A stretch of 63,900 bases of DNA, filler included, from an uncultured bacterium (GCA_964543655.1; 8 parts of 8 records of this genome joined end to end with filler, not necessarily neighbours in it); one strand, 5' to 3'. Positions 5,328-21,010 are shown, counted from the whole stretch's first letter. Made by a program: numbers and translations. Notes: generated from the letters alone by a model not told the origin.

Positions 5328-6044
5328 TTACACCTCAAAATTTTCTGATGATAACTGTGCTGTTGCACCACCATCGATTATGAAATTTTGTCCTGTAACA
5401 GTTATATTCTCTTTAGCAAGAAAATAACATAATTTTGCAATTTCAACAGGTTCAACTATCTTTTTTAATGGAATTCTTTTAGAAATGTCATATCCTTTTC
5501 CAGCCCTTTTTAAACCTTGCTTTAACATCTCAGTGTTAACTGCACCTGGAGATATTGAATTAACCTTTATTCCCAATGGTGCAAGTTCAAGAGCAAAAGC
5601 TTTAGTCAATGCTAATACAGCACCTTTTGTAGCTACATAACTTGATAAATTAGGTGAAGTTGCTATTGAATGAACAGAGCAGATATTAATAATTGATGAA
5701 CCTCGATTTAGTTTCTCTTGTAATATCTGGGTAAGTTCAAAAATAGCAATGCAGTTAACCTTAAAAGAATTGTTTAAATCTTCAAGCTTATATTCAAAAA
5801 TAGATTTTGCAATTTGAATTGCTGCATTGTTTATTAATAGATCAACTATATTTACATTTAATAATTTTTTTAAAATTAAATTTTTATCAATAGGTTTTGC
5901 AAGATCACAATGAATAAAAATATCTGTAAATTCAGTGTCTTTAATTTTATCAAGCCCAATTACATACCATTTTTTCTTTTTAAAAAATTTTGCAATTTCT
6001 TTTCCTATACCCTGAGAAGTCCCTGTTATAAAAACTGTTTTCAT
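5328..6044 (-). CDS. SDR family oxidoreductase
   Basis: TGTSQGIG, NNAA, catalytic YVATK, VNSISPG. Confidence 0.92.
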   Translation of the reverse strand: MKTVFITGTSQGIGKEIAKFFKKKKWYVIGLDKIKDTEFTDIFIHCDLAKPIDKNLILKKLLNVNIVDLLINNAAIQIAKSIFEYKLEDLNNSFKVNCIAIFELTQILQEKLNRGSSIINICSVHSIATSPNLSSYVATKGAVLALTKAFALELAPLGIKVNSISPGAVNTEMLKQGLKRAGKGYDISKRIPLKKIVEPVEIAKLCYFLAKENITVTGQNFIIDGGATAQLSSENFEV

Positions 6045-6958
6045 AATCCCAGTCCTTTATAAAGCATATTTAAAGAATTTCTGTGAACTCTATTCCAAAA
6101 AAAACTACTTGAATTTGAATTATGTGGAGACAAAATAACATTATTCATTTTTCTTAATGGAGAATCTTCTGGCAATGGTTCAAATTCAAAAACATCCAAC
6201 CCTGCACCTGCTATTATTTTATTTTTTAAAGCAAGGATTAAATCTTCTTCTTTAATGATAGGTCCTCTTGCAGTATTTATAATAATTGCATCTTTTTTCA
6301 TAAGTTTAAGCTTTTCCATATTTATTAAATGATGGGAAGTTTCATTTAAATCACAATTAATTGATACAAAATCTGACTGTTTTAATAATTCATTTAAAGA
6401 AACCATTTTGCATGGAGGATCTTCTATTTTTCTTATATCATTTCCAACGATTTTCATTCCAAAAACTTTTGCCTTTTCTGCAACTCTTCTTCCAATATTT
6501 CCAACCCCAATTATTCCAAGAGTTTTTTCCTGCAATGTAAAGCCTTTTATCTTTTCCCATTTTCCCTGTTTCATCATTTTATCACTAACTAAGATATTTC
6601 TTGCAAAGCATAACATAAATCCAATCACTGTATCAGAAACAGGTTCTGTAAAGGCATTGGGAGTGTTAAATACTTTTATTCCTCTTGACTCTGCATATTT
6701 TTTATTAATAGAATCAATACCTGTTCCCCATTTTACAATAACTTTTAATTTTTTTGCTTTATCTATTACTTTTTCTGTTATTCTATCATCGCCACAGATA
6801 ATTCCATGAACATCTTCAATTATTTTCAATAGATCATCTTCTTCTAATCTTTCTTTTACTTCAGGTAAAAAAATATCAATATTTTTATCTTTTAATTCTT
6901 GTTCAAACCTATCAATCTCTTTTTGCATATATGGAGCAGAAATAATAACTTTATACAT
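6041..6958 (-). CDS. D-2-hydroxyacid dehydrogenase (phosphoglycerate dehydrogenase-like, no ACT domain)
   Basis: GIIGVGNIG, INTARG, GAGLDVFEFEP, LSPH. Confidence 0.9.
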   Translation of the reverse strand: MYKVIISAPYMQKEIDRFEQELKDKNIDIFLPEVKERLEEDDLLKIIEDVHGIICGDDRITEKVIDKAKKLKVIVKWGTGIDSINKKYAESRGIKVFNTPNAFTEPVSDTVIGFMLCFARNILVSDKMMKQGKWEKIKGFTLQEKTLGIIGVGNIGRRVAEKAKVFGMKIVGNDIRKIEDPPCKMVSLNELLKQSDFVSINCDLNETSHHLINMEKLKLMKKDAIIINTARGPIIKEEDLILALKNKIIAGAGLDVFEFEPLPEDSPLRKMNNVILSPHNSNSSSFFWNRVHRNSLNMLYKGLGL

Positions 6959-6959
6959 T

Positions 6960-7556
6960 TTATTCCTCCAATAAAACTGCTCTCACAGGAGATGCTTCTG
7001 CATTTTCTATTAACAAAGGAAAAGCCATTAAAGTATAAATACCCGGGGATATATTTTTCAAATTAAGTCCTTCAAGAATTATAATATCATTTGAAAGTAA
7101 AATCTCATGAGTTTCAAAATTTTCATTATTAAAAATTTCAATTGAAAGATAATCTATTCCAACAAGATTAATTTTTTTTTCTACAAGAAACATAGCACCG
7201 TCTGAATTTAAAGCAACATAATCTTCGGTAAAATCTGAATTTAAAATCTCAGAATTTTTTGTTTTTAAAAGAATATTATCTGCTCTCAGCTCAATATTTT
7301 TAAATGATTGAGAAGATATAACATCATCCATTATTTCAACAACCTGACATTTCCCAAAGAATCTTCTGAGCTCTACATTATCTATACTTTTACCATCTTT
7401 AATAAAATGCTTTGGAGCATCAACATGAGTTCCTGTATGAAGATCCATTTTTATAAAAGAAGTGTTTTCATTATAGAAAATATGAGAAAACCTAACAGAT
7501 CCTGGCCATTGAACTATATCTTTATTTAGTTTCATTGAAATATCATAAAATTTCAT
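6960..7556 (-). CDS. Cyclase family metal-dependent hydrolase (kynurenine formamidase-like)
   Basis: HTGTHVDAP signature, VGIDYLS, ILEGL, SPVRAV. Confidence 0.9.
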   Translation of the reverse strand: MKFYDISMKLNKDIVQWPGSVRFSHIFYNENTSFIKMDLHTGTHVDAPKHFIKDGKSIDNVELRRFFGKCQVVEIMDDVISSQSFKNIELRADNILLKTKNSEILNSDFTEDYVALNSDGAMFLVEKKINLVGIDYLSIEIFNNENFETHEILLSNDIIILEGLNLKNISPGIYTLMAFPLLIENAEASPVRAVLLEE

Positions 7557-8202
7557 GAATTTTCTCCGCTAAAATAAAATCATCTTCAGTATCAATATCA
7601 ATTGCTTCAAGTTTGTTAATTTCAAATAGATAAGGATTTTGGCCTATCCTTGATTTTTTTTTAAAAAAACTGTTCCTTGTAAATATGTATAAACATGAAT
7701 TTTCCTCATAAACTGGCGGTAAATCCTGAGTTCTAATTAACTCATCAGGATTGTGATTAATTGGATTAAAATCTTTATCATATAGCCTTGCCTGAATTTT
7801 TGTAACTGTGAATAGAGAGTCATAATCATTTTGATTCTTAAAAATTTTTATTGCTTTTTCAATGGATTCTTTTTTTAAACATGGATTTGTAACATGAGTT
7901 TGAACAAAAAAATCTGTATCATTAAAGTTAATTAAAATATTTTCGATTATTTTATTCATTGAAACAAAATCTCCATGAAGATGTTCAGGTCTGAAGTTAA
8001 TTGTAATATCAGGAAAATATTTTAAAACAAACTCAGAAATTTTATCTGAATCTGTATCAAGGATTATTTTTTCAATATTTTCAACCTTTTTCAATGTATT
8101 GATTATCCAATAAAATAGAGGCTTGCCATTGAAACTCCTAATATTTTTATCAGGTACTCTTTCTGAATGTTCTTTTGCTGGGACAATTGCATAAAATCTC
8201 AT
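7543..8202 (-). CDS. Acylneuraminate cytidylyltransferase family (NeuA/KdsB-like)
   Basis: SERVPDKNIR..GKPL, TDS, RTQDL, DIDTEDDF. Confidence 0.88.
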   Translation of the reverse strand: MRFYAIVPAKEHSERVPDKNIRSFNGKPLFYWIINTLKKVENIEKIILDTDSDKISEFVLKYFPDITINFRPEHLHGDFVSMNKIIENILINFNDTDFFVQTHVTNPCLKKESIEKAIKIFKNQNDYDSLFTVTKIQARLYDKDFNPINHNPDELIRTQDLPPVYEENSCLYIFTRNSFFKKKSRIGQNPYLFEINKLEAIDIDTEDDFILAEKIHEIL

Positions 8203-9290: not shown

Positions 9291-10475
9291 TTACAAATTT
9301 GAATAATTTTCCAAAAGTTTTTTCTTAATTTCATTTCTCAATTTTTTTAAAGAGTTATTCTCAATAAATACCTGCATTTGGACTGAAAAAGAAGGAAATT
9401 TTTTTAAAAGTTTGATACTATTTTCATCAATTAATCTATTTTTTTCCTTTTTTGGGAAAGAACCACCATGTTTATGGTAAACAAATAGATTAGTTACATG
9501 AATATTTTTATAACCACTTTCAATAGCACGCTGGCACCAATCATTTTCTTCTCCATATCCCTTTCCAAAAGTTTCATCAAAAAAGCCTATTTTATCAACC
9601 ACATTTTTATTTATAGCCATGCAAAATCCTACACCTGTTGGCATTTCAATATAAGTTTTTTGAAAATTTACTAATTTAAAAATATTGTCAATTTGTTCCA
9701 CATTTAAATTTTCAGGTAGAGGATTGTCTTTTAAATACTCAGGAAAACTACAAAATAATCCTGAGTTTGTAAAAGGAGTTGCAGATGCAACTTTCTCCAT
9801 ATGAACAATAGGAAAAATTAATCTTTCAAGCCAATTAGATGGTACTTCAGTATCTGTATTTAAAATAACAAAATGATTGTTTGTTAAATTTACAAGTTTA
9901 TTAACAGTTTTAATAAAACCTAAATTTTTTCTGTTTTGAAAGATTTCTAAATTAATATTTTTATGAATTTTTTGAAAATTTTTTAAAAATGGTAAAATTT
10001 CTCTATTAGGACTATTATCATCTGCAATTAGCAGTCTATATGGGATATATGTGTTTTTTATTATACTGTGAAGTAATGTTTTTAAAAAATTTAATCCATT
10101 GTAAACTGGTATTAAAATGTCAATAGGGTTGGAAGTTTTTATTTCAGGGATACAAGGTTTTTCATGAAAAAAACTTCTCTCTTCTGTTTCAGGGGCTATA
10201 TTTTTTACACACTTTCTACCTTCTTTTTTGCCATGAAGAATAAAGTGGAGTAATGGGTTTATTCCACTATTTTTTACATCAGGGTAAGTAGAAAGATAAA
10301 ATTTCGTGTCAAACAGGTTTGAAGGATTCCTTCCCTCCTTCCAACCAAACAGTAAAAAATGAATTAGAGGCTCAATTCCAGCAATTTTTACATCAGGATA
10401 TTTTTCAATGTAGAATAGAAGGTCGAAATATCCTGAAAATTTAATTATTTTATAATCTTCAATATTGAAATCCAT
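9291..10475 (-). CDS. GT2 glycosyltransferase with two N-terminal FD..FY...YPDV..G..PL.HF...G..EGR repeats
   Basis: Repeats visible at about aa 14-89. GT2 motifs DILIPVYNG, NLGF, LNTDT, GYGEENDWC. Confidence 0.88.
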   Translation of the reverse strand: MDFNIEDYKIIKFSGYFDLLFYIEKYPDVKIAGIEPLIHFLLFGWKEGRNPSNLFDTKFYLSTYPDVKNSGINPLLHFILHGKKEGRKCVKNIAPETEERSFFHEKPCIPEIKTSNPIDILIPVYNGLNFLKTLLHSIIKNTYIPYRLLIADDNSPNREILPFLKNFQKIHKNINLEIFQNRKNLGFIKTVNKLVNLTNNHFVILNTDTEVPSNWLERLIFPIVHMEKVASATPFTNSGLFCSFPEYLKDNPLPENLNVEQIDNIFKLVNFQKTYIEMPTGVGFCMAINKNVVDKIGFFDETFGKGYGEENDWCQRAIESGYKNIHVTNLFVYHKHGGSFPKKEKNRLIDENSIKLLKKFPSFSVQMQVFIENNSLKKLRNEIKKKLLENYSNL

Positions 10476-10481
10476 TTGTTA

Positions 10482-11555
10482 TTAAAAATCAACTATTCCC
10501 TTTTTAAAAAGATAATTTTGATAATCAAAAATTTCCTGCATAATTCTTTCTAAAGAATATTTAAAATCCCAATTAGGATAATGTCTTTTAAACTTTGAAA
10601 CATCTGAGATATACCATATATGATCCCCTCTACGATTTTGCTCCTGATATTCATAATCAAGTTTTTTACCTGAAAGTTTCTCACATATTTCTATTGCTTC
10701 AAGTATTGAACAATTTGAAAATCTTCCTCCTCCAGCATTGTAAACCTCACCCTCTCTTGGTGCGTTATAAAAATGCCAGAACATATTTACAAGGTCAAAA
10801 GAATGAATATTATCCCTAACCTGCTTACCTTTGTATCCATAGATATAATACTTTCTACCACAAATACAACATCTCATTAAATATGATAAAAATCCGTGCA
10901 ATCTTGTACCTGAATGAGCTGGGCCTGTGAGACATCCACCTCTGAAACAAGCTGTTTTAAGGTGAAAATATTTGCCATATTCCTGCACAAGTATATCTGC
11001 TGCAACTTTGCTAGCGCCAAATAATGAATGAAGTGAGTGATCAATACTCATTGTTTCATCAATACCATTAAAATATTTATGCTCTTTTTCTATTTCATAC
11101 CTTTTTTCAAGCTCAACAAGAGGAAGTTTGTTTGGTGTATCACCATAAACTTTGTTGGTAGATGTAAAAATAAAAACAGCTTCTGGACAATATTTTCTAA
11201 AGTTTTCAAGTAAAACAAGAGTGCCATTGGCATTTACTGTGAAATCAGTAAAAGGCTCCTTTGCTGCCCAATCGTGAGAAGGTTGAGCTGCTGTGTGAAT
11301 AATAAGCTCAAACTTAAATTTTTTAAAAAGTTTTTCTATCTCATTTTCATCTCTAATATCTATGTCAAAGTGATAGTAATTTTTAAATTCTTTTGTTAAA
11401 AAATCTCTATTCCATTTAGTAGAAGCATCTTTGCCAAAAAAGTATTCCCTTAAATTATTGTCAATTCCTACAATATCAAACCCTTTTTCTATTAAAAATT
11501 TCACAGATTCTGAACCAATTAAACCAGCAGAACCTGTTACAAGAGCAACACTCAT
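10482..11555 (-). CDS. NAD-dependent NDP-sugar epimerase (CDP-paratose/tyvelose 2-epimerase, RfbE-like)
   Basis: [34 protein letters not shown]. Confidence 0.8.
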
Positions 11556-11557
11556 TA

Positions 11558-14494
11558 TTATTTCTCCGTTTTTTTCTTTTTAAATTCTTTCCATCTTCTA
11601 CAAGCATCAGCAACTGCCTGTTCAAGTTCACTCTTTGTAAGATTCTCTCCTCTTATCACAGTAAATCTTGCTCCATCAAATTTATCCCACTCTTCTGTTA
11701 ATAGAAGTCCTTTTTTTTTGATTATTTCAAAATATTTTGTACCTGGAAAAGGAGTTGTAAGGGAAAATTGACAGGTATCAGGAGCAAGTTCCATTGCATA
11801 TTGAATTGTTTTTTCTATTGTTTCCTTTGTTTCTCCTGGTAGCCCGAAGGTAAAGGTTAGATGAAACTGAATTCCCAGCTCTTTACACCATTTAACAGTC
11901 TGTTCAACTTTTCTAAGATCAAGTCCTTTTCCACAAGCATCAATAAGCTGCTGTGATGCTGATTCTACTCCAAACTTTATTGAAATAAGTCCTGCATCTT
12001 TCATTGCTTTTAATGTTTCAAAATCTGAAGTGTCAGCTCTTGCCATTACTGCCCACGGAATTTTATTGAGCCCCCTTTTTTTAATCTCCTCACATATTTT
12101 TAAAATTCTAACTTTACCAATGTTAAAAGTATCATCATCAAAATAAAATGAGCGGTATCCATAGAAATTAACCATTTCTTCAATTTCATCAACAACTTTT
12201 ACAGGATCCCTTGTCCTATAGCTTCTGCTCTGGTACAATACTTGAGGCCATACACAGTAAATACAACCATATGGACAGCCTCTGCTTGCATGTATCTGTA
12301 GTGAAGGAAATTCCATTCCTGCAAAAAGATCCTCATAATTGTAAACAGGCAAAGTCAGCCGTTCTGGATAAGGTAAATTGTCTATATTAACAAGGTCTGT
12401 TCTTTCAGAGTTGCCAGAAATTTCTCCATCTTTGTTGAAATATAAAAATCCTTTCTGATTTATATTATCAAAGGTTTTATTTTTTTCAAAATATTTTACT
12501 ATATTTAAAAAAACTTCTTCAACTTCTCCTATTATTATTCCATCAACACATGGATAATCTAATAAAAAGCTTTCTTTAAAATGGCTAACATGAGTGCCTG
12601 AAAGAATTATTTTACAATCAGGAATTAAACTTTTTAATTTTCTCACATAATTGATATCATTGAAAATAGAAGCTGTTGCTGTTTCCATCAAAATTAAATC
12701 AGGGTTAAAACCTTTAATTCTTTGAAAAAATTCTTCATCAAGCAAACCCTCAGCTATAGCATCAACAAATATTGTATTAAATCCATGTTCTTTTAACAGA
12801 GATGTAGTATAACCAAGAAAAAAAGGATAAGGAATATAATTAGGTGGAATATCACAATTTTTTTCCCTAAGTTCAATTGTGAATGGCCACCGAGAACCAG
12901 CTCTTACTCCATATCTTGTACCAGTTCTCCATGGCGGATTTAAAATCATTATTTTAGGACTTTTATTTATAAATTTTTTTTCATAAAATTCTTCATATGC
13001 TATTCTTTCCCTGCTAACCCTGAGCATATTAAATATTATTGGCTCTAATGACAAAATATTTACAATTGTTTCAGAAATTTTAGATGCATATTCTAAATTT
13101 GCATCAGGATAAATATTTTTTAATTTCAAAATTAAGTTATTTTCATTAAGGTTTCTAACAATTGACTCTACTTTTTTTGAAATTCCGCAAAGATTAGTTA
13201 TGGATTCAATATCTTTTAAAATAAATTTTTTGAGCTTATAAGGTATAAATTCAACTTTGTTCATAAAAAACAGATAGATAGAGCATAATAGATAAATAGT
13301 GTCTACTTTTTCATTTTCATTAATTTTTACTTGAAGAATATCTTTTATAGGCCAGAGAAATACACTTAAAAATAGAGGATATAATAGATGAAATCTTTTT
13401 TTCTGTATAAACTCTTCAAAACATTTAACAATAATTGGAAAGGAGTGGTTAACAATTCTTTTTTTACTAACTTCAAGATTAAAAAAGTTTGGTTTAAATG
13501 CAGCAGAAACCCAATTATACCATGTGATTAATAATGTTTTTAATGTATCCTGTCTTTGATGGTTAGCTATTGCATTTGGTAAATATAAAAGTTTATAACC
13601 CGAATTTTTAATTTTATTTGATATGTCACAATCCTCAAAGTTTGTTTTATAGATTGGGTTAAAACCCCCTATTTCCTTTAATACTGAAAGCCTAAATACT
13701 GATGTGCTTCCAAATAAAAATTGTGGCTCTACTTTTTCATCCCCATAGTGTTGGCGCATTAAAACTTCACGACACCGGTCAACTGTATAGATAGAATGTT
13801 GTTCAAGTAATTTCCCTCCAATTCCTCCAATTTTTTCTGAATTGTCCTTTAAAAATTCCATCATAATTATTTCTAAAAATGTTTCATCTGGAATTGCATC
13901 TGTATTAACAGTTGCAAGAAAATCACCCTTAGCATTTTCAATTGCTGTGTTTCTAACTGCTGCCAGCCCTTTATTTTCTTTATGATGAATTATTTTTATT
14001 AAATCAGGATATTTTTTTCTAAATTGCTCAGCTATTGCTATAGAGTTATCAGGTGTAGCATCATTAATAATGAGAATTTCATATATAGGATAAGTTTGCC
14101 TTAAAATATTTTCAATACATGATTTTATATATTTTTCAACATTGTATACAGGTATGTAAAATGTAACTTTTTCAGGAATATACTTATCTTCAAGATCGGA
14201 TAATTTTTTTTGTAAATCCTCAAATTGTGAAATATCACTATATTTTAAAACTTTTATTGCTGAAAAAGGTAAGTTGTTTTTTAAATATAAATCTATTAAA
14301 TCATTAATTGCTTTTTTGTAATTTTTTTTTATCTTTATAGCTTTTTGAATGTACTTTTTTCCATATTGCAATCCATATTCATTGGATAAATATAATCCAT
14401 AATAGTGTAATAATTCAGGAGCAAGAGGATTTTTTCTTAAAAATGATTCTATATTAGATGGTTTTACATTATTATTAAAAAAGTTTTTTTTCAT
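11558..14494 (-). CDS. TPR-like + GT2 + cobalamin-binding radical SAM fusion protein
   Basis: GT2 region ([22 protein letters not shown]), B12-binding region (LNPPW...SGTHVS...GEVE), radical [31 protein letters not shown]. Confidence 0.85.
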
Positions 14495-14543: not shown

Positions 14544-15707
14544 TCAACAATTTTTTAACCACTCTTCGTAATATCTTGATACTTTAAAATTACCCTGTTT
14601 TACTAAATAGTCAAAAATATATTTTATTCTATTCTTTATTAAAATTTTTTGTTCCTCAAAATTTTTAATAATTTCATCTATACTATTTAAGCGATTTATA
14701 TCATTTTGAAAACCTATAATTTTTTTTAAAATTTTAAAATTATCAATAATCGGCTCAAACATTATTAATCTATTGGCGATAATTTCAGCATTTTTATAAT
14801 CCTTTTTTTCTAATAACTGGCTTATTAACTTTTTATAACCATCAAAATATAATGGTTCAATTAGTATAGAATTTAACAACTCTACACCTTCAATGTGTTG
14901 AAAATTTTTTTTAATTAAATAGAATTCCCCTAAGCAATTTAATTTAAAATCATAACCTTCATCTAATAAGAAAAAATCTGGTGATGCTTTTATTATCCAT
15001 CTTTTTGACAATAATTCAGAATTTTTTTTATCATTTTCAGTTTTAAATTTTTTTCTTGTTTTCTCTTCAAGATGAATTAAAAATATATTAGGATTATAAA
15101 TTATTTTATAGCCAAGCTCTCTAATTTTAAAGCAGAGATCAATGTCTTCAAATCCATTGATAAAATTTTCATCAAACATATTCACTTTGAAAAATAGCTC
15201 TTTTCTAATTGCCAAACATGCACCAGTTACTGCTTGAAGCTCTCTGATTTTATTTGCATCAGGATAATTTGAAGGGAAATTTTTGAAAAGATGTCCCAAA
15301 TGTTTATCTGGATAAATTAATACTCCAGCATGTTGAATGGTATTATCATTGTATAATAGCTTTGCACCTAAAATAGCAGCATCTTTATATTTTGTAAATG
15401 ATTCTATAATTATTTTTATAAAATTATTCTTTATAAGGGTATCATTATTTAGAAATAGTAGATAATCTCCTTCGGCTACTTCTGCTCCTCTGTTACAAGT
15501 ATATGCGAATCCTCTATTATACTTATTTCTGATATATCTTACCTCATCTTGCAACTTAAAAAATTCACTTGTATCATCTGTTGAACAATCATCTACAACA
15601 ATAATTTCATAATTATTATCCATGCAATGTTTTTTTATTGAGTTTATGCACATTAATGTTAATTCAAAGTTGTTATAAACAGGAATAATTATAGAAACTT
15701 TACTCAT
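14544..15707 (-). CDS. GT2 glycosyltransferase with helical C-terminal extension
   Basis: SIIIPVYN, NRGFA..CN, FLNNDT, QHAG, VTGAC, EDIDLC. Confidence 0.9.
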   Translation of the reverse strand: MSKVSIIIPVYNNFELTLMCINSIKKHCMDNNYEIIVVDDCSTDDTSEFFKLQDEVRYIRNKYNRGFAYTCNRGAEVAEGDYLLFLNNDTLIKNNFIKIIIESFTKYKDAAILGAKLLYNDNTIQHAGVLIYPDKHLGHLFKNFPSNYPDANKIRELQAVTGACLAIRKELFFKVNMFDENFINGFEDIDLCFKIRELGYKIIYNPNIFLIHLEEKTRKKFKTENDKKNSELLSKRWIIKASPDFFLLDEGYDFKLNCLGEFYLIKKNFQHIEGVELLNSILIEPLYFDGYKKLISQLLEKKDYKNAEIIANRLIMFEPIIDNFKILKKIIGFQNDINRLNSIDEIIKNFEEQKILIKNRIKYIFDYLVKQGNFKVSRYYEEWLKNC

Positions 15708-17805: not shown

Positions 17806-19411
17806 GAGTTACAACACAGCCTTCTGGCCTTAATTTTAAATATTCTTTTACAACTTCTCCACTCCAATTTGGAAAAGTATTTAAATATACGTCAATAACA
17901 AAAGCATAAATTTTAGGATCGACCCAACCTTCAAAATAAAACCTATTAGCTATTCCTAATTTTTCTATTTTTTCTTTAATCCCATTTGTTTCACCTGGTC
18001 CACAAGCTAAATAAACAGTATCTGGATTTTGCTTTAAAATTTCCGCAACAGTTTTCAGGTAATCCCAATTATCCACTTTAACCATTCTGCCAATTGCCCC
18101 AAGAATAATTGTCCCTTCTGGAAATCTTTTTCTGATTCCTTCAGCCTCTTTTTTCCATCTTTCTTTTTCACCTTCAAAAAAGATAGAATCCAATTCTATA
18201 TCAAATAATTCAAAATCTTTTTCACACTCTTTTGGAGGAGGAAAGTGAATAATTTTTTTATCTATTCCTTTAAAATCTACTACAGTATTCATATGAGCCC
18301 AGTAAATCTGTTTTGGGGCAACTCTTGAAATAAATAAAAATTCTCCTACTGAATAAAAGTGATCAGAGTAAATTACAATATCAATATTATCTCGTATTAA
18401 TTTTTCTCTAAATTCTAATACTTTTTTTGCATAATCACAATAGTGAACAAATCTTTTATAGTGGCTAACAGGAGAACGTACTTTAATATTTAGTTGTTTT
18501 AAAAAATTAATACATATCTTTTCTGTTTTTTCTCCTCCTAAATCTTCCATATTCATTGTATAAAAATAAACTTCGTGTTTTTCTGAAAAAGTTTTATCTT
18601 CAAGAAGTTTTTTTATAAAAGAATATTCTAATTTAAATGGACTCCAAAAAGTTATTACTGGCCTAATAAATGCTAATTTAATTTTTCCTTGTTTTGTAAT
18701 CTCTTTTTTACATGGAGGTAATTTATTACGTTCTATCCATTCTAAATAATAATTCTGGCATGGTTTACAAATTTCTCTTTCCAGTTTAATAAAATCATTA
18801 TACATATCCTCAACACTATGTATAAACATGGAATAAACCATCATCTCTGTAAATAGAACATCAGACAACCGGTCTTTTTTTATCAAATATTTTAAAATTA
18901 TTTTTAATTCTTCAAAAACTAAATCTATTTTTTGTTTTTCTGGAATTTTTAAAATATTGAAAATTTGCCATATCCAGTTTAAACAATTTCTAAAATCGTA
19001 AAAAGATAATCGCTCAATTTCCTTTAAATTTAGAATGTTATTAAAAAAAGATTTCAAAAATGTTGAATTGAATCCATTAAAAAAATTTTTAAAAAATTCA
19101 ATATAGTTCAATTCAATTAAATAAGTTACATCCATTATAGGAAAAATTCTTCTAAAATACTGAACTAAACCATTTAATACATTTCCATTTAATATATCAA
19201 TCATAAAAATCTTATCATTTTCAAACAAATACTCCTTTGAATTTTTATTAATTGTTGATATTCTTTTCTCTAAAAATTTTTTTAAATTTTCAAGTTCTTC
19301 AATTTTCTCAAAATGATTTGGAAATTTTAAAACCTCATAAGCTAATTTTAGATATTCTCTGTCTATTATTCGGTCACTTAATAATTGCTCTAAAAGAATA
19401 TCTATTTTCAT
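17795..19411 (-). CDS. Putative glycosyltransferase with GT41/O-GlcNAc-transferase-like C-terminal domain
   Basis: RVAPKQIYWAH, GAIGRMVKV, RFYFEGWVD, DVYLNTFP motifs. Confidence 0.6.
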   Translation of the reverse strand: MKIDILLEQLLSDRIIDREYLKLAYEVLKFPNHFEKIEELENLKKFLEKRISTINKNSKEYLFENDKIFMIDILNGNVLNGLVQYFRRIFPIMDVTYLIELNYIEFFKNFFNGFNSTFLKSFFNNILNLKEIERLSFYDFRNCLNWIWQIFNILKIPEKQKIDLVFEELKIILKYLIKKDRLSDVLFTEMMVYSMFIHSVEDMYNDFIKLEREICKPCQNYYLEWIERNKLPPCKKEITKQGKIKLAFIRPVITFWSPFKLEYSFIKKLLEDKTFSEKHEVYFYTMNMEDLGGEKTEKICINFLKQLNIKVRSPVSHYKRFVHYCDYAKKVLEFREKLIRDNIDIVIYSDHFYSVGEFLFISRVAPKQIYWAHMNTVVDFKGIDKKIIHFPPPKECEKDFELFDIELDSIFFEGEKERWKKEAEGIRKRFPEGTIILGAIGRMVKVDNWDYLKTVAEILKQNPDTVYLACGPGETNGIKEKIEKLGIANRFYFEGWVDPKIYAFVIDVYLNTFPNWSGEVVKEYLKLRPEGCVVTLER

Positions 19412-20472
19412 TAAATTATACCTTTTAGTTTATATTCTTCATACCACCAAGGTTTTATTGGAATAACATCATTTTTTGAAAAAATAAAGCCATATTTCCC
19501 ACCAGAATATTTTAATAAACCAACAGCTTTTACATTGGGCTCTATTATTTCGCATTTATTTGCACAGGTATAGAGACAATCCTTATGGCATTCTTTGTTT
19601 TTTATTTTCTCAAGTATTTTTACGCCACTTTCAAGAACTTTATCTAAAGAGCCTGATTCTCTTATATTGCCCATTTTTAAGTATGGAAGCCATAAAAGGC
19701 ATGGATAAACATTGCCATATGGGTCAATATCAATGTTTCTAAACCCCATATAACAATTGAAGTCTATTTTTTTATTTTCAAAAACAGCTTTTTGTAAAAT
19801 ATATTTACTTGCATATCTTGATTTATGATAGCCAATAGCCTTTAATTGTCTATCTATTTCATTAAGCTCATCTTTTGAAAAAATAAAGTCTTCTTTTTTT
19901 AAAGGTTTATTAGTTAGATTATCAACTTCATTTTTAAATCTCTCTGGATTAAATCTTCCATATCCTATGTAAAGCCCCACTCCAAGTTTTTTAGCAAAAT
20001 TATATACCCATTCAATTAAATGCAAATTTTCTTTGTAAATTGTAAATTGTAACCTTATTACCATTCCTTTAAGCTCTTTTAATTTTTCAACTGTTTTAAG
20101 AGCTTTTTCATAACCATTTTTATGCAGCCTAATTTTGGGGTAAGTTTCCTCATCACCATCAAAAGAAATATCAAGCCTATAAATAGGGCATTTTTTTAAA
20201 ACATATTTTGCTATATCAACATGCCTATCAGGATACCATCCTGTAATTGGAGTATCAATTACAATATCTTTGTGAAATTTATACAAAGAATCAACTGCTT
20301 TAATATAAGTATCAGATAGATGAGGTTCTCCTCCTGTAATATGAACCTTTTTCAAATCAAGATATTTTGAAGAAAATATTGAATCAAGCTCTTTTTCTAT
20401 TAATTCTTCACTTTTTTTATCAGGTAATTTCCATATTGAACAATACCTACAAGGTCCTGGACAATACTCTGT
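19411..20472 (-). CDS. Radical SAM/SPASM (twitch) protein, 5' truncated by contig end
   Basis: Frame extends upstream of the ORF call to TEYCPGPCRYCSIW (CxxxCxxC). Also TGGEP, SFDG and C..G..IDPYGNVYPC...GNI..CHKDCLYTC. Confidence 0.88.
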   Translation of the reverse strand, partial: TEYCPGPCRYCSIWKLPDKKSEELIEKELDSIFSSKYLDLKKVHITGGEPHLSDTYIKAVDSLYKFHKDIVIDTPITGWYPDRHVDIAKYVLKKCPIYRLDISFDGDEETYPKIRLHKNGYEKALKTVEKLKELKGMVIRLQFTIYKENLHLIEWVYNFAKKLGVGLYIGYGRFNPERFKNEVDNLTNKPLKKEDFIFSKDELNEIDRQLKAIGYHKSRYASKYILQKAVFENKKIDFNCYMGFRNIDIDPYGNVYPCLLWLPYLKMGNIRESGSLDKVLESGVKILEKIKNKECHKDCLYTCANKCEIIEPNVKAVGLLKYSGGKYGFIFSKNDVIPIKPWWYEEYKLKGII

Positions 20473-20473
20473 A

Positions 20474-20573
20474 NNNNNNNNNNNNNNNNNNNNNNNNNNN
20501 NNNNNNNNNNNNNNNNNTTAATTAATTAANNNNNNNNNNNNNNNNNNNNNNNNNNNNNNNNNNNNNNNNNNNN
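20474..20573. other. Artificial contig linker
   Basis: N44-TTAATTAATTAA-N44, with stops in all six frames. Confidence 0.98.
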
Positions 20574-21010
20574 TCAACTTTTCCTTCAAGAACATAGATA
20601 AATTCTTCTCCTTCATGAGCATAAGGCTTCTCATTTTTAATTGTTTCTGGCTCAAGTGTCACTATAAAAGGCTCTAACTTTCTGTTCTTTTTTCCCATTC
20701 CAAGAGATTTATAGTTGTATCCATACCTTGTAATTCCATCTTTTGAAGCAAATCTTGCAACTTTTTCACCTTCTCCTTTTTTTGTAATGCAGAAGGAATC
20801 TTTCCCTTCAACACCAAAAAATACACCAATATCCACACCAAGTCCCTTTGCTATTTTAAAAAGTGTGCCCAATGATGGAGATTCAAGATGATTTTCTATT
20901 TGTGATAAAATAGCAGATGAGTACCCTGTTATTTTACTAAGCTCCTGCAAACTTAATCCTTTTTCCTCTCTAATGCTCTTTATTTTTTCAGCTATATTGA
21001 CTTTTTCCAT
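20574..21010 (-). CDS. XRE-family HTH + cupin transcriptional regulator, 3' truncated
   Basis: IKSIREEKGLSLQELS..LSQIEN..PSL.TL HTH and HEGEEFIYVLEG cupin. Confidence 0.9.

Follow-up and report, generated by a model that had tools for sequence, protein, structure and literature searches.

What is made by a protein that carries a glycosyltransferase and a radical S-adenosylmethionine (SAM) enzyme on a single chain? The question is raised by an open reading frame (ORF) of 978 amino acids (aa) in a 63,900-nucleotide stretch of DNA (the window) from an uncultured bacterium (GCA_964543655.1). The window joins eight contigs with N spacers between them, and the ORF lies wholly within one of these, G000:C66 (positions 1-20473); genes beyond it (20474-63900) are not its neighbours, and the apparent ORF at 20522-21010 begins inside a spacer. 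A preliminary description of the gene had called it a family 2 glycosyltransferase (GT2) fused to a cobalamin-dependent radical SAM domain, giving a C-methyl or carbocyclic sugar on a surface glycan. Judged by its domains, the protein is a GT2 joined to a radical SAM enzyme resembling HpnJ, and a tentative case can be made that it contracts a sugar ring.

The single open frame and the Pfam matches bear out the described order of parts: GT2 at residues 113-228 (PF00535; 101.8 bits against a cut-off of 23.3), B12-binding at 564-665 (44.1 bits against 32.1) and Radical_SAM at 737-899, the last with its motif CPYGCIYC and the partial TIM barrel of that superfamily. An AlphaFold2 (AF2) model of the whole chain, built on a 64-row alignment, has a predicted local distance difference test (pLDDT) score of 94.1 and a predicted template-modelling (pTM) score of 0.93. 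The protein contains no transmembrane-grade stretch (best 19-residue hydropathy 1.42). The TPR-like N-terminus that had been described holds up as a likeness: the model has helical hairpins there, and residues 1-108 match the N-terminus of a protein, P0018, that carries TPR_19 (29%, E 3.8e-6), but the same residues have no Pfam TPR match at E 0.001. What had been taken for a helical linker is instead homologous to the C-terminal domain of stand-alone GT2s of the same subfamily, about 430-445 aa long.

The fusion is no artefact of assembly, since many homologues are fused, in both orders, and a second assembly holds the same protein (P0002, from a 15.8-kb contig in ENA; 978 aa with three differences, N197 retained). 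A protein search with residues 100-978, from which the best 120 matches were listed, led to an alignment of fused homologues, 59 with the GT2 first and 20 with the radical SAM domain first; named sources of homologues are Brocadia, Nitrospirota, Armatimonadota, Aureabacteria and Iainarchaeum. (The GT2 alignment thus comprises 80 domains, 60 in the former order with the query included and 20 in the latter; P0002, being nearly identical, and rows whose GT2 match is not long were set aside.) In a quick tree of 73 radical SAM domains (LG+G4, as for all trees here), the GT2-first fusions, the radical-SAM-first fusions with a DxD-type GT2 and those with an NND-type GT2 form three separate clades, with SH-like approximate likelihood ratio test (SH-aLRT) values of 97, 100 and 99; two of the clades also contain a few rows that are partial or unfused. 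On the evidence of these alignments and trees, the fusion is genuine and conserved, and it arose more than once.

The fusion looks like the joining of two neighbouring genes, because the supposed linker is the C-terminal domain of the long stand-alone GT2s, and these are found just upstream of the radical SAM gene in several Omnitrophota loci. The copy in the window stops right after the radical SAM domain; its six closest relatives among the matches listed continue, four of them into GT4 and one into FkbM. In three split loci (L057:9561-9995, L068:9522-9995 and L022:2786-3562), a small membrane protein with no Pfam match lies between the long-form GT2 and the radical SAM gene. A sequencing run that contains 91% of the words of the gene bears the label hydrothermal vent metagenome, and no RNA data holding the gene were among the matches listed.

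To what family does the radical SAM module belong? The subfamily is marked by NxPW...GVRAGSRWP, YxPxPF, [YF]FDDDTFN, MxRAD, K840, H878 and Q909. At least 474 relatives were found in a genome scan, and the 79 loci kept belong with few exceptions to uncultured Omnitrophota, to other candidate phyla or to archaea. The module stays below the cut-off of every NCBIfam model: HpnJ (TIGR03471) is best, with 261 bits against 577.6 (a true HpnJ, as control, scored 843), and BchE (TIGR02026) second, with 186.5 against 481, while AprD4 (NF033070) gives 108.9 against 500 and the methylase models at most 125. By these cut-offs the GVRAGSRWP enzymes are an unnamed subfamily outside HpnJ, AprD4 and BchE, and no characterised non-glycan family claims the module, which leaves the earlier glycan reading standing in this respect. 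The radical SAM proteins of Brachyspira plasmids gave no match to the family, a phage search gave distant matches only, and the ESM Atlas, searched with the homologue P0157, returned only generically named clusters. Neither fusion nor subfamily is described in the literature searched (titles and abstract openings, mostly outside subscription journals, supplements excluded), and the part available of bioRxiv 10.64898/2026.06.07.730766 contains nothing on the GVRAGSRWP family.

HpnJ is the closest named family even so, and the resemblance extends to particular residues: R535, D613, W749-P750, D786-D788, H878 and Q909 are common to both, as are the AGSR loop, a W-P-Q after the cluster motif, a DDDT and the altered base pocket taken up below. 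H878 and Q909 occur together in 12 of 13 rows of the HpnJ clade and never in the 24 rows beyond it, BchE and a MoeK5-like protein lacking both. (The latter, L100:7791-9299, I take to be MoeK5-like from its neighbours, its record being unannotated.) In a 37-row tree, the subfamily, HpnJ and Lawsonia-type proteins stand on one side of a branch with support 97/96, apart from the MoeK5-like protein and BchE, and a test on a 20-row tree rejects a grouping with the MoeK5-like methylase (approximately unbiased test, p-AU 0.039). I regard the link to HpnJ as probable. The hopanoid half of the analogy does not carry over: a search of the genome, which is 94.3% complete, found no squalene-hopene cyclase (no SQHop_cyclase_N match), and a hopanoid role is therefore rejected for it.

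A second HpnJ-like subfamily, also unnamed, has the motif SREQRSP...YYP and scores 376 bits to HpnJ. It is found in glycan loci (L098:7998-9461, L085, L058 and L158, a Lawsonia plasmid included), and it adjoins a GVRAGSRWP enzyme in L026, L029, L037 and L058.

Does the enzyme use cobalamin? Three motifs are given in the text available of PMC9204698: G-x-S/T on strand beta3, with a Ser that forms a bond to the base; Gly-Gly, a pocket on beta4; and GE. Position 604, which is Ser or Thr in TokK, CysS, OxsB and TsrM, is Glu in all 292 members of the subfamily aligned, and position 602 is a bulky residue or Ala, never Gly, so the beta3 motif reads aliphatic-x-Glu. The Gly-Gly pocket occurs in 4 of the 292 members and in none of the 13 rows of the HpnJ clade, as against 20 of the 24 rows outside it; no row of the HpnJ clade has Ser or Thr at 604. 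The nearest solved structure is that of AprD4 (Z 36.0, root-mean-square deviation 2.8, 426 residues aligned; the next has Z 28.9), an enzyme that PMC12931638, in the part available, counts among those not binding cobalamin. The module does have a Rossmann domain over the Pfam cut-off for B12-binding, but to judge from its pocket residues the protein probably does not bind cobalamin as such enzymes usually do, and the label "cobalamin-dependent", which stems from the name of a Pfam domain, is doubtful. A census of B12 domains in five small genomes does not discriminate, most of them holding several. The altered pocket offers a concrete way to ask whether B12 is needed at all in a whole branch of radical SAM enzymes annotated as "B12-binding", HpnJ among them.

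The two halves of the protein keep company outside the fusion as well. By tblastn, the neighbours found in the 79 radical SAM loci were SPASM radical SAM proteins (28 loci), a Wzm-type permease (25), the GT2 subfamily (15), two GT4 groups (15 and 11) and an epimerase (6). The background was 80 loci (0.74 Mb in total, against 1.26 Mb for the radical SAM loci) taken from a metagenome scan that used a generic GT2 pattern and missed the GT2 subfamily; in these loci the family radical SAM was found in none and the epimerase in one. Among 301 genomes from the phylum of an Omnitrophota-titled record, the family radical SAM is present in 51, comprising all 20 that have the GT2 subfamily and 31 of the 281 others (related genomes not being independent, so that Fisher values overstate the association); without the two seed genomes, the former count is 18 of 18. 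(The large scans scored 8-16 candidates per genome, and 12 genomes whose best radical SAM match was weaker than 1e-130 were dropped, judged to hold paralogues by score alone.) The two genes are separated by 5 kb or less in ten of the 20 genomes and by up to 50 kb in four more; in the other six they are on different contigs. The GT2 subfamily had no match in the 35-genome group around the genome G042, nor in 150 further Nitrospirota-group genomes. In five loci (L038, L056, L074, L077 and L019), five to twelve SPASM radical SAM matches surround the family radical SAM, several of them behind a Wzm-type exporter.

What reaction might such a pair perform? Ordinary glycosyl transfer requires the ring oxygen of the sugar, which a carbocyclic sugar nucleotide lacks, and any contraction of the ring would therefore follow transfer. 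Radical ring contraction of sugars is known from genetics only (HpnJ, Cds and PtmC). The reading I favour, at somewhat less than an even chance, is that the protein contracts a hexose to a five-membered carbocycle (a cyclitol ether) in the manner of HpnI and HpnJ, acting on a surface glycan other than a hopanoid and probably without the usual cobalamin. The GT2 would attach a hexose to a glycan growing at the cytoplasmic face, or would add the next sugar onto the edited residue. A 5'-deoxyadenosyl radical would take hydrogen from C5 of the glycoside, and ring opening followed by closure between C1 and C5 would yield the carbocycle, a course also proposed for calditol synthase and HpnJ; the Rossmann domain would, as in AprD4, have the shaping of the active site as its main role. 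Candidate acceptors are an O-polysaccharide, a protein glycan or a glycolipid. HpnJ and Cds are likewise proposed to act once the sugar is attached (PMC9092360 and PMC13459092, in the parts available).

The systems compared differ from the fusion in several respects. HpnJ also works beside a GT2, hpnJ and hpnI being adjacent, and HpnJ, HpnI and HpnK together make bacteriohopanetetrol cyclitol ether; there, however, the enzymes are separate proteins, whereas here they are fused and set among polysaccharide export and glycosyltransferase genes, and the GT2 of the window is not HpnI (20%, E 6e-5). Cds (Saci_1489) is proposed to contract an attached hexose by way of a C5 radical (PMC13459092, in the part available), but it acts on archaeal tetraether lipids and is likened here by its proposed reaction, not by sequence. 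The same limit applies to PtmJ and PtmC of the pactamycin pathway, likened by description: a glycosyltransferase is followed by a radical SAM enzyme, with an aminocyclopentitol as proposed product (PMC9092360, in the part available), though as separate proteins and on a carrier-bound natural product.

Several observations weigh against ring contraction. HpnJ shares only about 30% identity with the module, which scores less than half the TIGR03471 cut-off. The link to HpnJ falls short of firm because the branch uniting HpnJ with the subfamily drops to 71/83 in the 20-row tree and the test allows a grouping with BchE (p-AU 0.313). Cobalamin binding is doubtful rather than excluded, since the GE motif is kept (G656 and E657 each in 289 of 292 members, and G633 in 290) and OxsB binds cobalamin with a single Gly at the pocket, as found in the subfamily. 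The GT2 subfamily is absent from 31 of the 51 genomes with the radical SAM, most family members being neither fused to it nor near it. Conversely, among 301 Desulfobacterota-group genomes, two non-seed GT2 matches (291 and 228 bits) lack the family radical SAM, one of the genomes being fragmented and the other match, at 228 bits, borderline. No HpnK-like deacetylase was seen among the glycan genes of the window. The HpnJ reaction itself, by the text available of PMC9092360, rests on knockouts, with no biochemical confirmation. A last point lies in the GT2: four changes private to the window copy (D144N, S147T, D197N and W241C) fall at sites where at least 85% of 34 outgroup fusions, and every one of the six siblings, keep the common residue.

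These changes raise the possibility, independent of the chemistry, that the GT2 of this copy is weakened or dead and the protein mainly a radical SAM enzyme tethered to glycan machinery; its relatives, moreover, have a C-terminal domain and a second short-chain dehydrogenase/reductase (SDR) that are missing here. I think this rather unlikely. D145, D199, E287-D288 and H312 are intact, D199 being the second Asp of the metal motif and E287-D288 the catalytic motif, and the mean identity of the domain to the outgroup, 46.9%, is within the sibling range of 45.1-51.1%. The first Asp of the DxD position is indeed Asn, as had been read (codon AAT at 13906-13904, giving V-N-T-D). A sequencing error is rejected as the cause, P0002 having the same residue and two runs, X1 and X2, showing no change at 13906 among the rows listed (all but eight); X1 may be the source sample. 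Nor is NTD a signature of the family, an idea also rejected: DxD is present in all 59 GT2-first homologues, so that NTD is found in 1 of 60 such rows, the query included, and otherwise only in P0002, while D199 is invariant in all 80 aligned domains. NxD need not mean loss of function, since it is present in 9 of the 20 radical-SAM-first fusions and in two neighbouring GT2s of the window. Just upstream of the NTD codon, at 13909-14046, runs X1 and X2 have dense single-base differences, D191N and V196I among the changes, in what is possibly a recombined segment.

Another alternative, which I consider improbable though worth keeping in view, reverses the order of events. The radical SAM domain would act first and without cobalamin, on a nucleotide sugar, in an AprD4-like dehydration or rearrangement to a deoxy or branched sugar that SDRs would finish and the GT2 transfer. 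AprD4 (PDB 6FD2), the paromamine 1,2-diol dehydratase, has the nearest solved fold to the module over its whole length; it acts on a sugar, as the module probably does, and by the part available of PMC12931638 its Rossmann-like domain is without cobalamin. The GT2 subfamily depends on the radical SAM (20/20) more than the reverse (20/51), as expected of a transferase for a rare donor, and the radical SAM is paired with several unrelated types of glycosyltransferase (GT2 with DxD, GT2 with NND and GT4). An SDR resembling tyvelose epimerase, often paired, flanks the radical SAM gene in the window as well as in Azospirillum and two close relatives, and in the Omnitrophota group it is present in 28 of 51 genomes with the radical SAM against 49 of 250 others. 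But the AprD4 model gives 109 bits against 261 for HpnJ, identity is 21%, AprD4 serves an aminoglycoside pathway, and its N-terminal domain does not match the profile of the subfamily domain. Its structural rank may reflect the library, HpnJ, BchE and MoeK5 being absent among the solved-structure matches. The SDR is found in only 6 of the 79 loci and 7 of the 20 GT2-subfamily genomes; frequent but absent from many loci and genomes, it is rejected as an obligate partner. The canonical CDP-tyvelose pathway is likewise not supported, the CDP-glucose pyrophosphorylase RfbF reaching at best 28.5 bits in the source genome against a cut-off of 300 and passing it in one of five genomes.

The C-methyl sugar of the preliminary description is unlikely, as a product of a cobalamin-dependent class B C-methyltransferase (MoeK5/GenD1-like) acting on a sugar carbon, with Glu604 suited to another cobamide base. 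Because the pocket motifs for the B12 base (G-x-S/T and Gly-Gly) are altered across the subfamily and a joint clade with the MoeK5-like protein is rejected, both this branch and cobalamin dependence are weakened; the low scores of the methylase models point the same way. The MoeK5-like protein itself keeps G-x-S and Gly-Gly. On the other side stand the Pfam match, the conserved GE and G633, two further strong B12-binding domains in the source genome, and the fact that methylases form the majority of characterised members of the cobalamin-dependent class. In the text available of PMC9204698, moreover, TokK W215, with which W749 aligns, lies between cluster and cobalamin, HpnJ falls in the same sequence similarity network group as Fom3 and MoeK5, and MoeK5 is a methylase; it shares with the fusion module the two-domain architecture and, probably, a sugar substrate.

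Least probable, to my mind, is that the fusion merely co-locates two enzymes at unrelated steps of one glycan pathway: the radical SAM family has further fusion partners (GT4, methyltransferase, SPASM and second radical SAM domains), only 9 of 54 single-domain representatives of the GT2 subfamily carry the radical SAM motif, and the two genomes noted above have the GT2 without it, but fusions with this GT2 subfamily occur in both orders, in different radical SAM clades, the two genes lie within 5 kb of each other in half of the 20 genomes, and the pTM of the full-length model suggests a fixed packing of domains.

If ring contraction is taken up again, a wider claim can be framed, one that I hold to be doubtful. 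The GVRAGSRWP enzymes would contract rings by radical SAM chemistry independent of cobalamin, their annotation as B12-dependent being mistaken, and would form a large family that has yet to be described; in Omnitrophota, DPANN archaea, vent bacteria and Azospirillum, they would supply carbocyclic sugars to surface polysaccharides. The fusion would be a one-protein machine to attach and cyclise, and HpnJ too would be free of cobalamin. The subfamily is widespread, as the counts above indicate, and the origin of carbocyclic sugars of lipopolysaccharide, such as caryose, is stated to be unknown in the text available of PMC9092360. Lipid substrates have made the biochemistry hard; a soluble fusion, which may make its substrate with a domain of its own, would be easier to work with. 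Ring contraction is also testable because Azospirillum brasilense Sp7, a cultured, plant-associated bacterium, has an unfused member, whose product could be found by knockout. This protein, AMK58_RS29225 (34% identity, with GVRAGSRWP and Glu604), is encoded on plasmid p5, which has no member of the GT2 subfamily; its gene stands directly behind two epimerases, one of them 63% identical to that of the window, and between two GT4-like genes.

The surface-glycan setting that had been supposed is supported by the contents of this locus and of related ones. The genes around the fusion are co-directional and include several GT2 and GT4-like proteins, a cytidylyltransferase, SDRs, a DUF354 protein and a SPASM protein. 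The features are collected in Table 1.

Table 1. Features of the fusion gene and of adjacent genes, in window coordinates.
Feature	Position	Strand	Evidence
Whole ORF, 978 aa: TPR-like, GT2, GT2 helical C-domain and HpnJ-like radical SAM module	11558..14494	-	Open frame, Pfam, AF2 (pLDDT 94.1, pTM 0.93)
Degenerate TPR-like helical hairpins, residues ~26-104	14183..14419	-	AF2 helices; match to TPR-bearing P0018; no Pfam match of its own
GT2 (GT-A) domain, residues 108-330; distinct subfamily (DxWRxxHMxQHWG, RTNxED, HxRxD)	13505..14173	-	Pfam, alignment
DxD position, N197-T198-D199	13898..13906	-	D199 invariant, N197 private to lineage
Helical domain, residues 331-508	12971..13504	-	Homology to C-terminal domain of stand-alone long-form GT2s; AF2
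Rossmann "B12-binding-like" domain, residues 512-730	12305..12961	-	Pfam, fold comparison, alignment
Subfamily signature GVRAGSRWP, residues 529-537 (HpnJ: GGAGSRYQ)	12884..12910	-	Alignments
Glu604, at site of the B12-base-binding Ser/Thr of solved cobalamin enzymes	12683..12685	-	Alignments
Radical SAM core and C-terminal helix, residues 731-978	11558..12304	-	Ends where closest relatives run on into GT4 or FkbM
CxxxCxxC motif CPYGCIYC, residues 740-747	12254..12277	-	Three Cys invariant in 120/120
Upstream GT2, NND at DxD position	14544..15707	-	Pfam, sequence
Downstream GT2, NTD at DxD position	9291..10475	-	Pfam, sequence
NAD-dependent epimerase, CDP-tyvelose 2-epimerase homologue	10482..11555	-	Starts 2 bases past fusion stop

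Further genes deserve mention. A four-gene run at 5328-8202 (minus strand), encoding a cytidylyltransferase, a putative cyclase, a 2-hydroxyacid dehydrogenase and an SDR, has the look of a route to an uncommon acid or sugar activated with CMP; it has no homologue at E 1e-10 in the 79 radical SAM loci. At 19411-20473 (minus strand), a SPASM radical SAM gene of the same glycan cluster is cut by the contig end, followed by genes for a GT4-like protein and DUF354. Elsewhere in the genome, on contig G000:C53 (L184:8458-9903), another type of B12-like radical SAM protein lies between a flippase, a methyltransferase, a formyltransferase and a PelF-like (DUF3492) GT4. On a plasmid of Eleftheria terrae (L096:7624-15300), a PIG-L deacetylase, a WecB/TagA glycosyltransferase and a close relative of the radical SAM enzyme share one operon, a trio like HpnI, HpnK and HpnJ. 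Finally, a pair of SDRs resembling tyvelose epimerase, of the AAQPSHDW and SAEPSV types and belonging to no named family, recurs in L095:7735-9934, L001:2204-4343, L002:5776-7876 and L182:7135-9436; the AAQPSHDW type is present in 77 of the 301 Omnitrophota-group genomes and on 23 plasmids.

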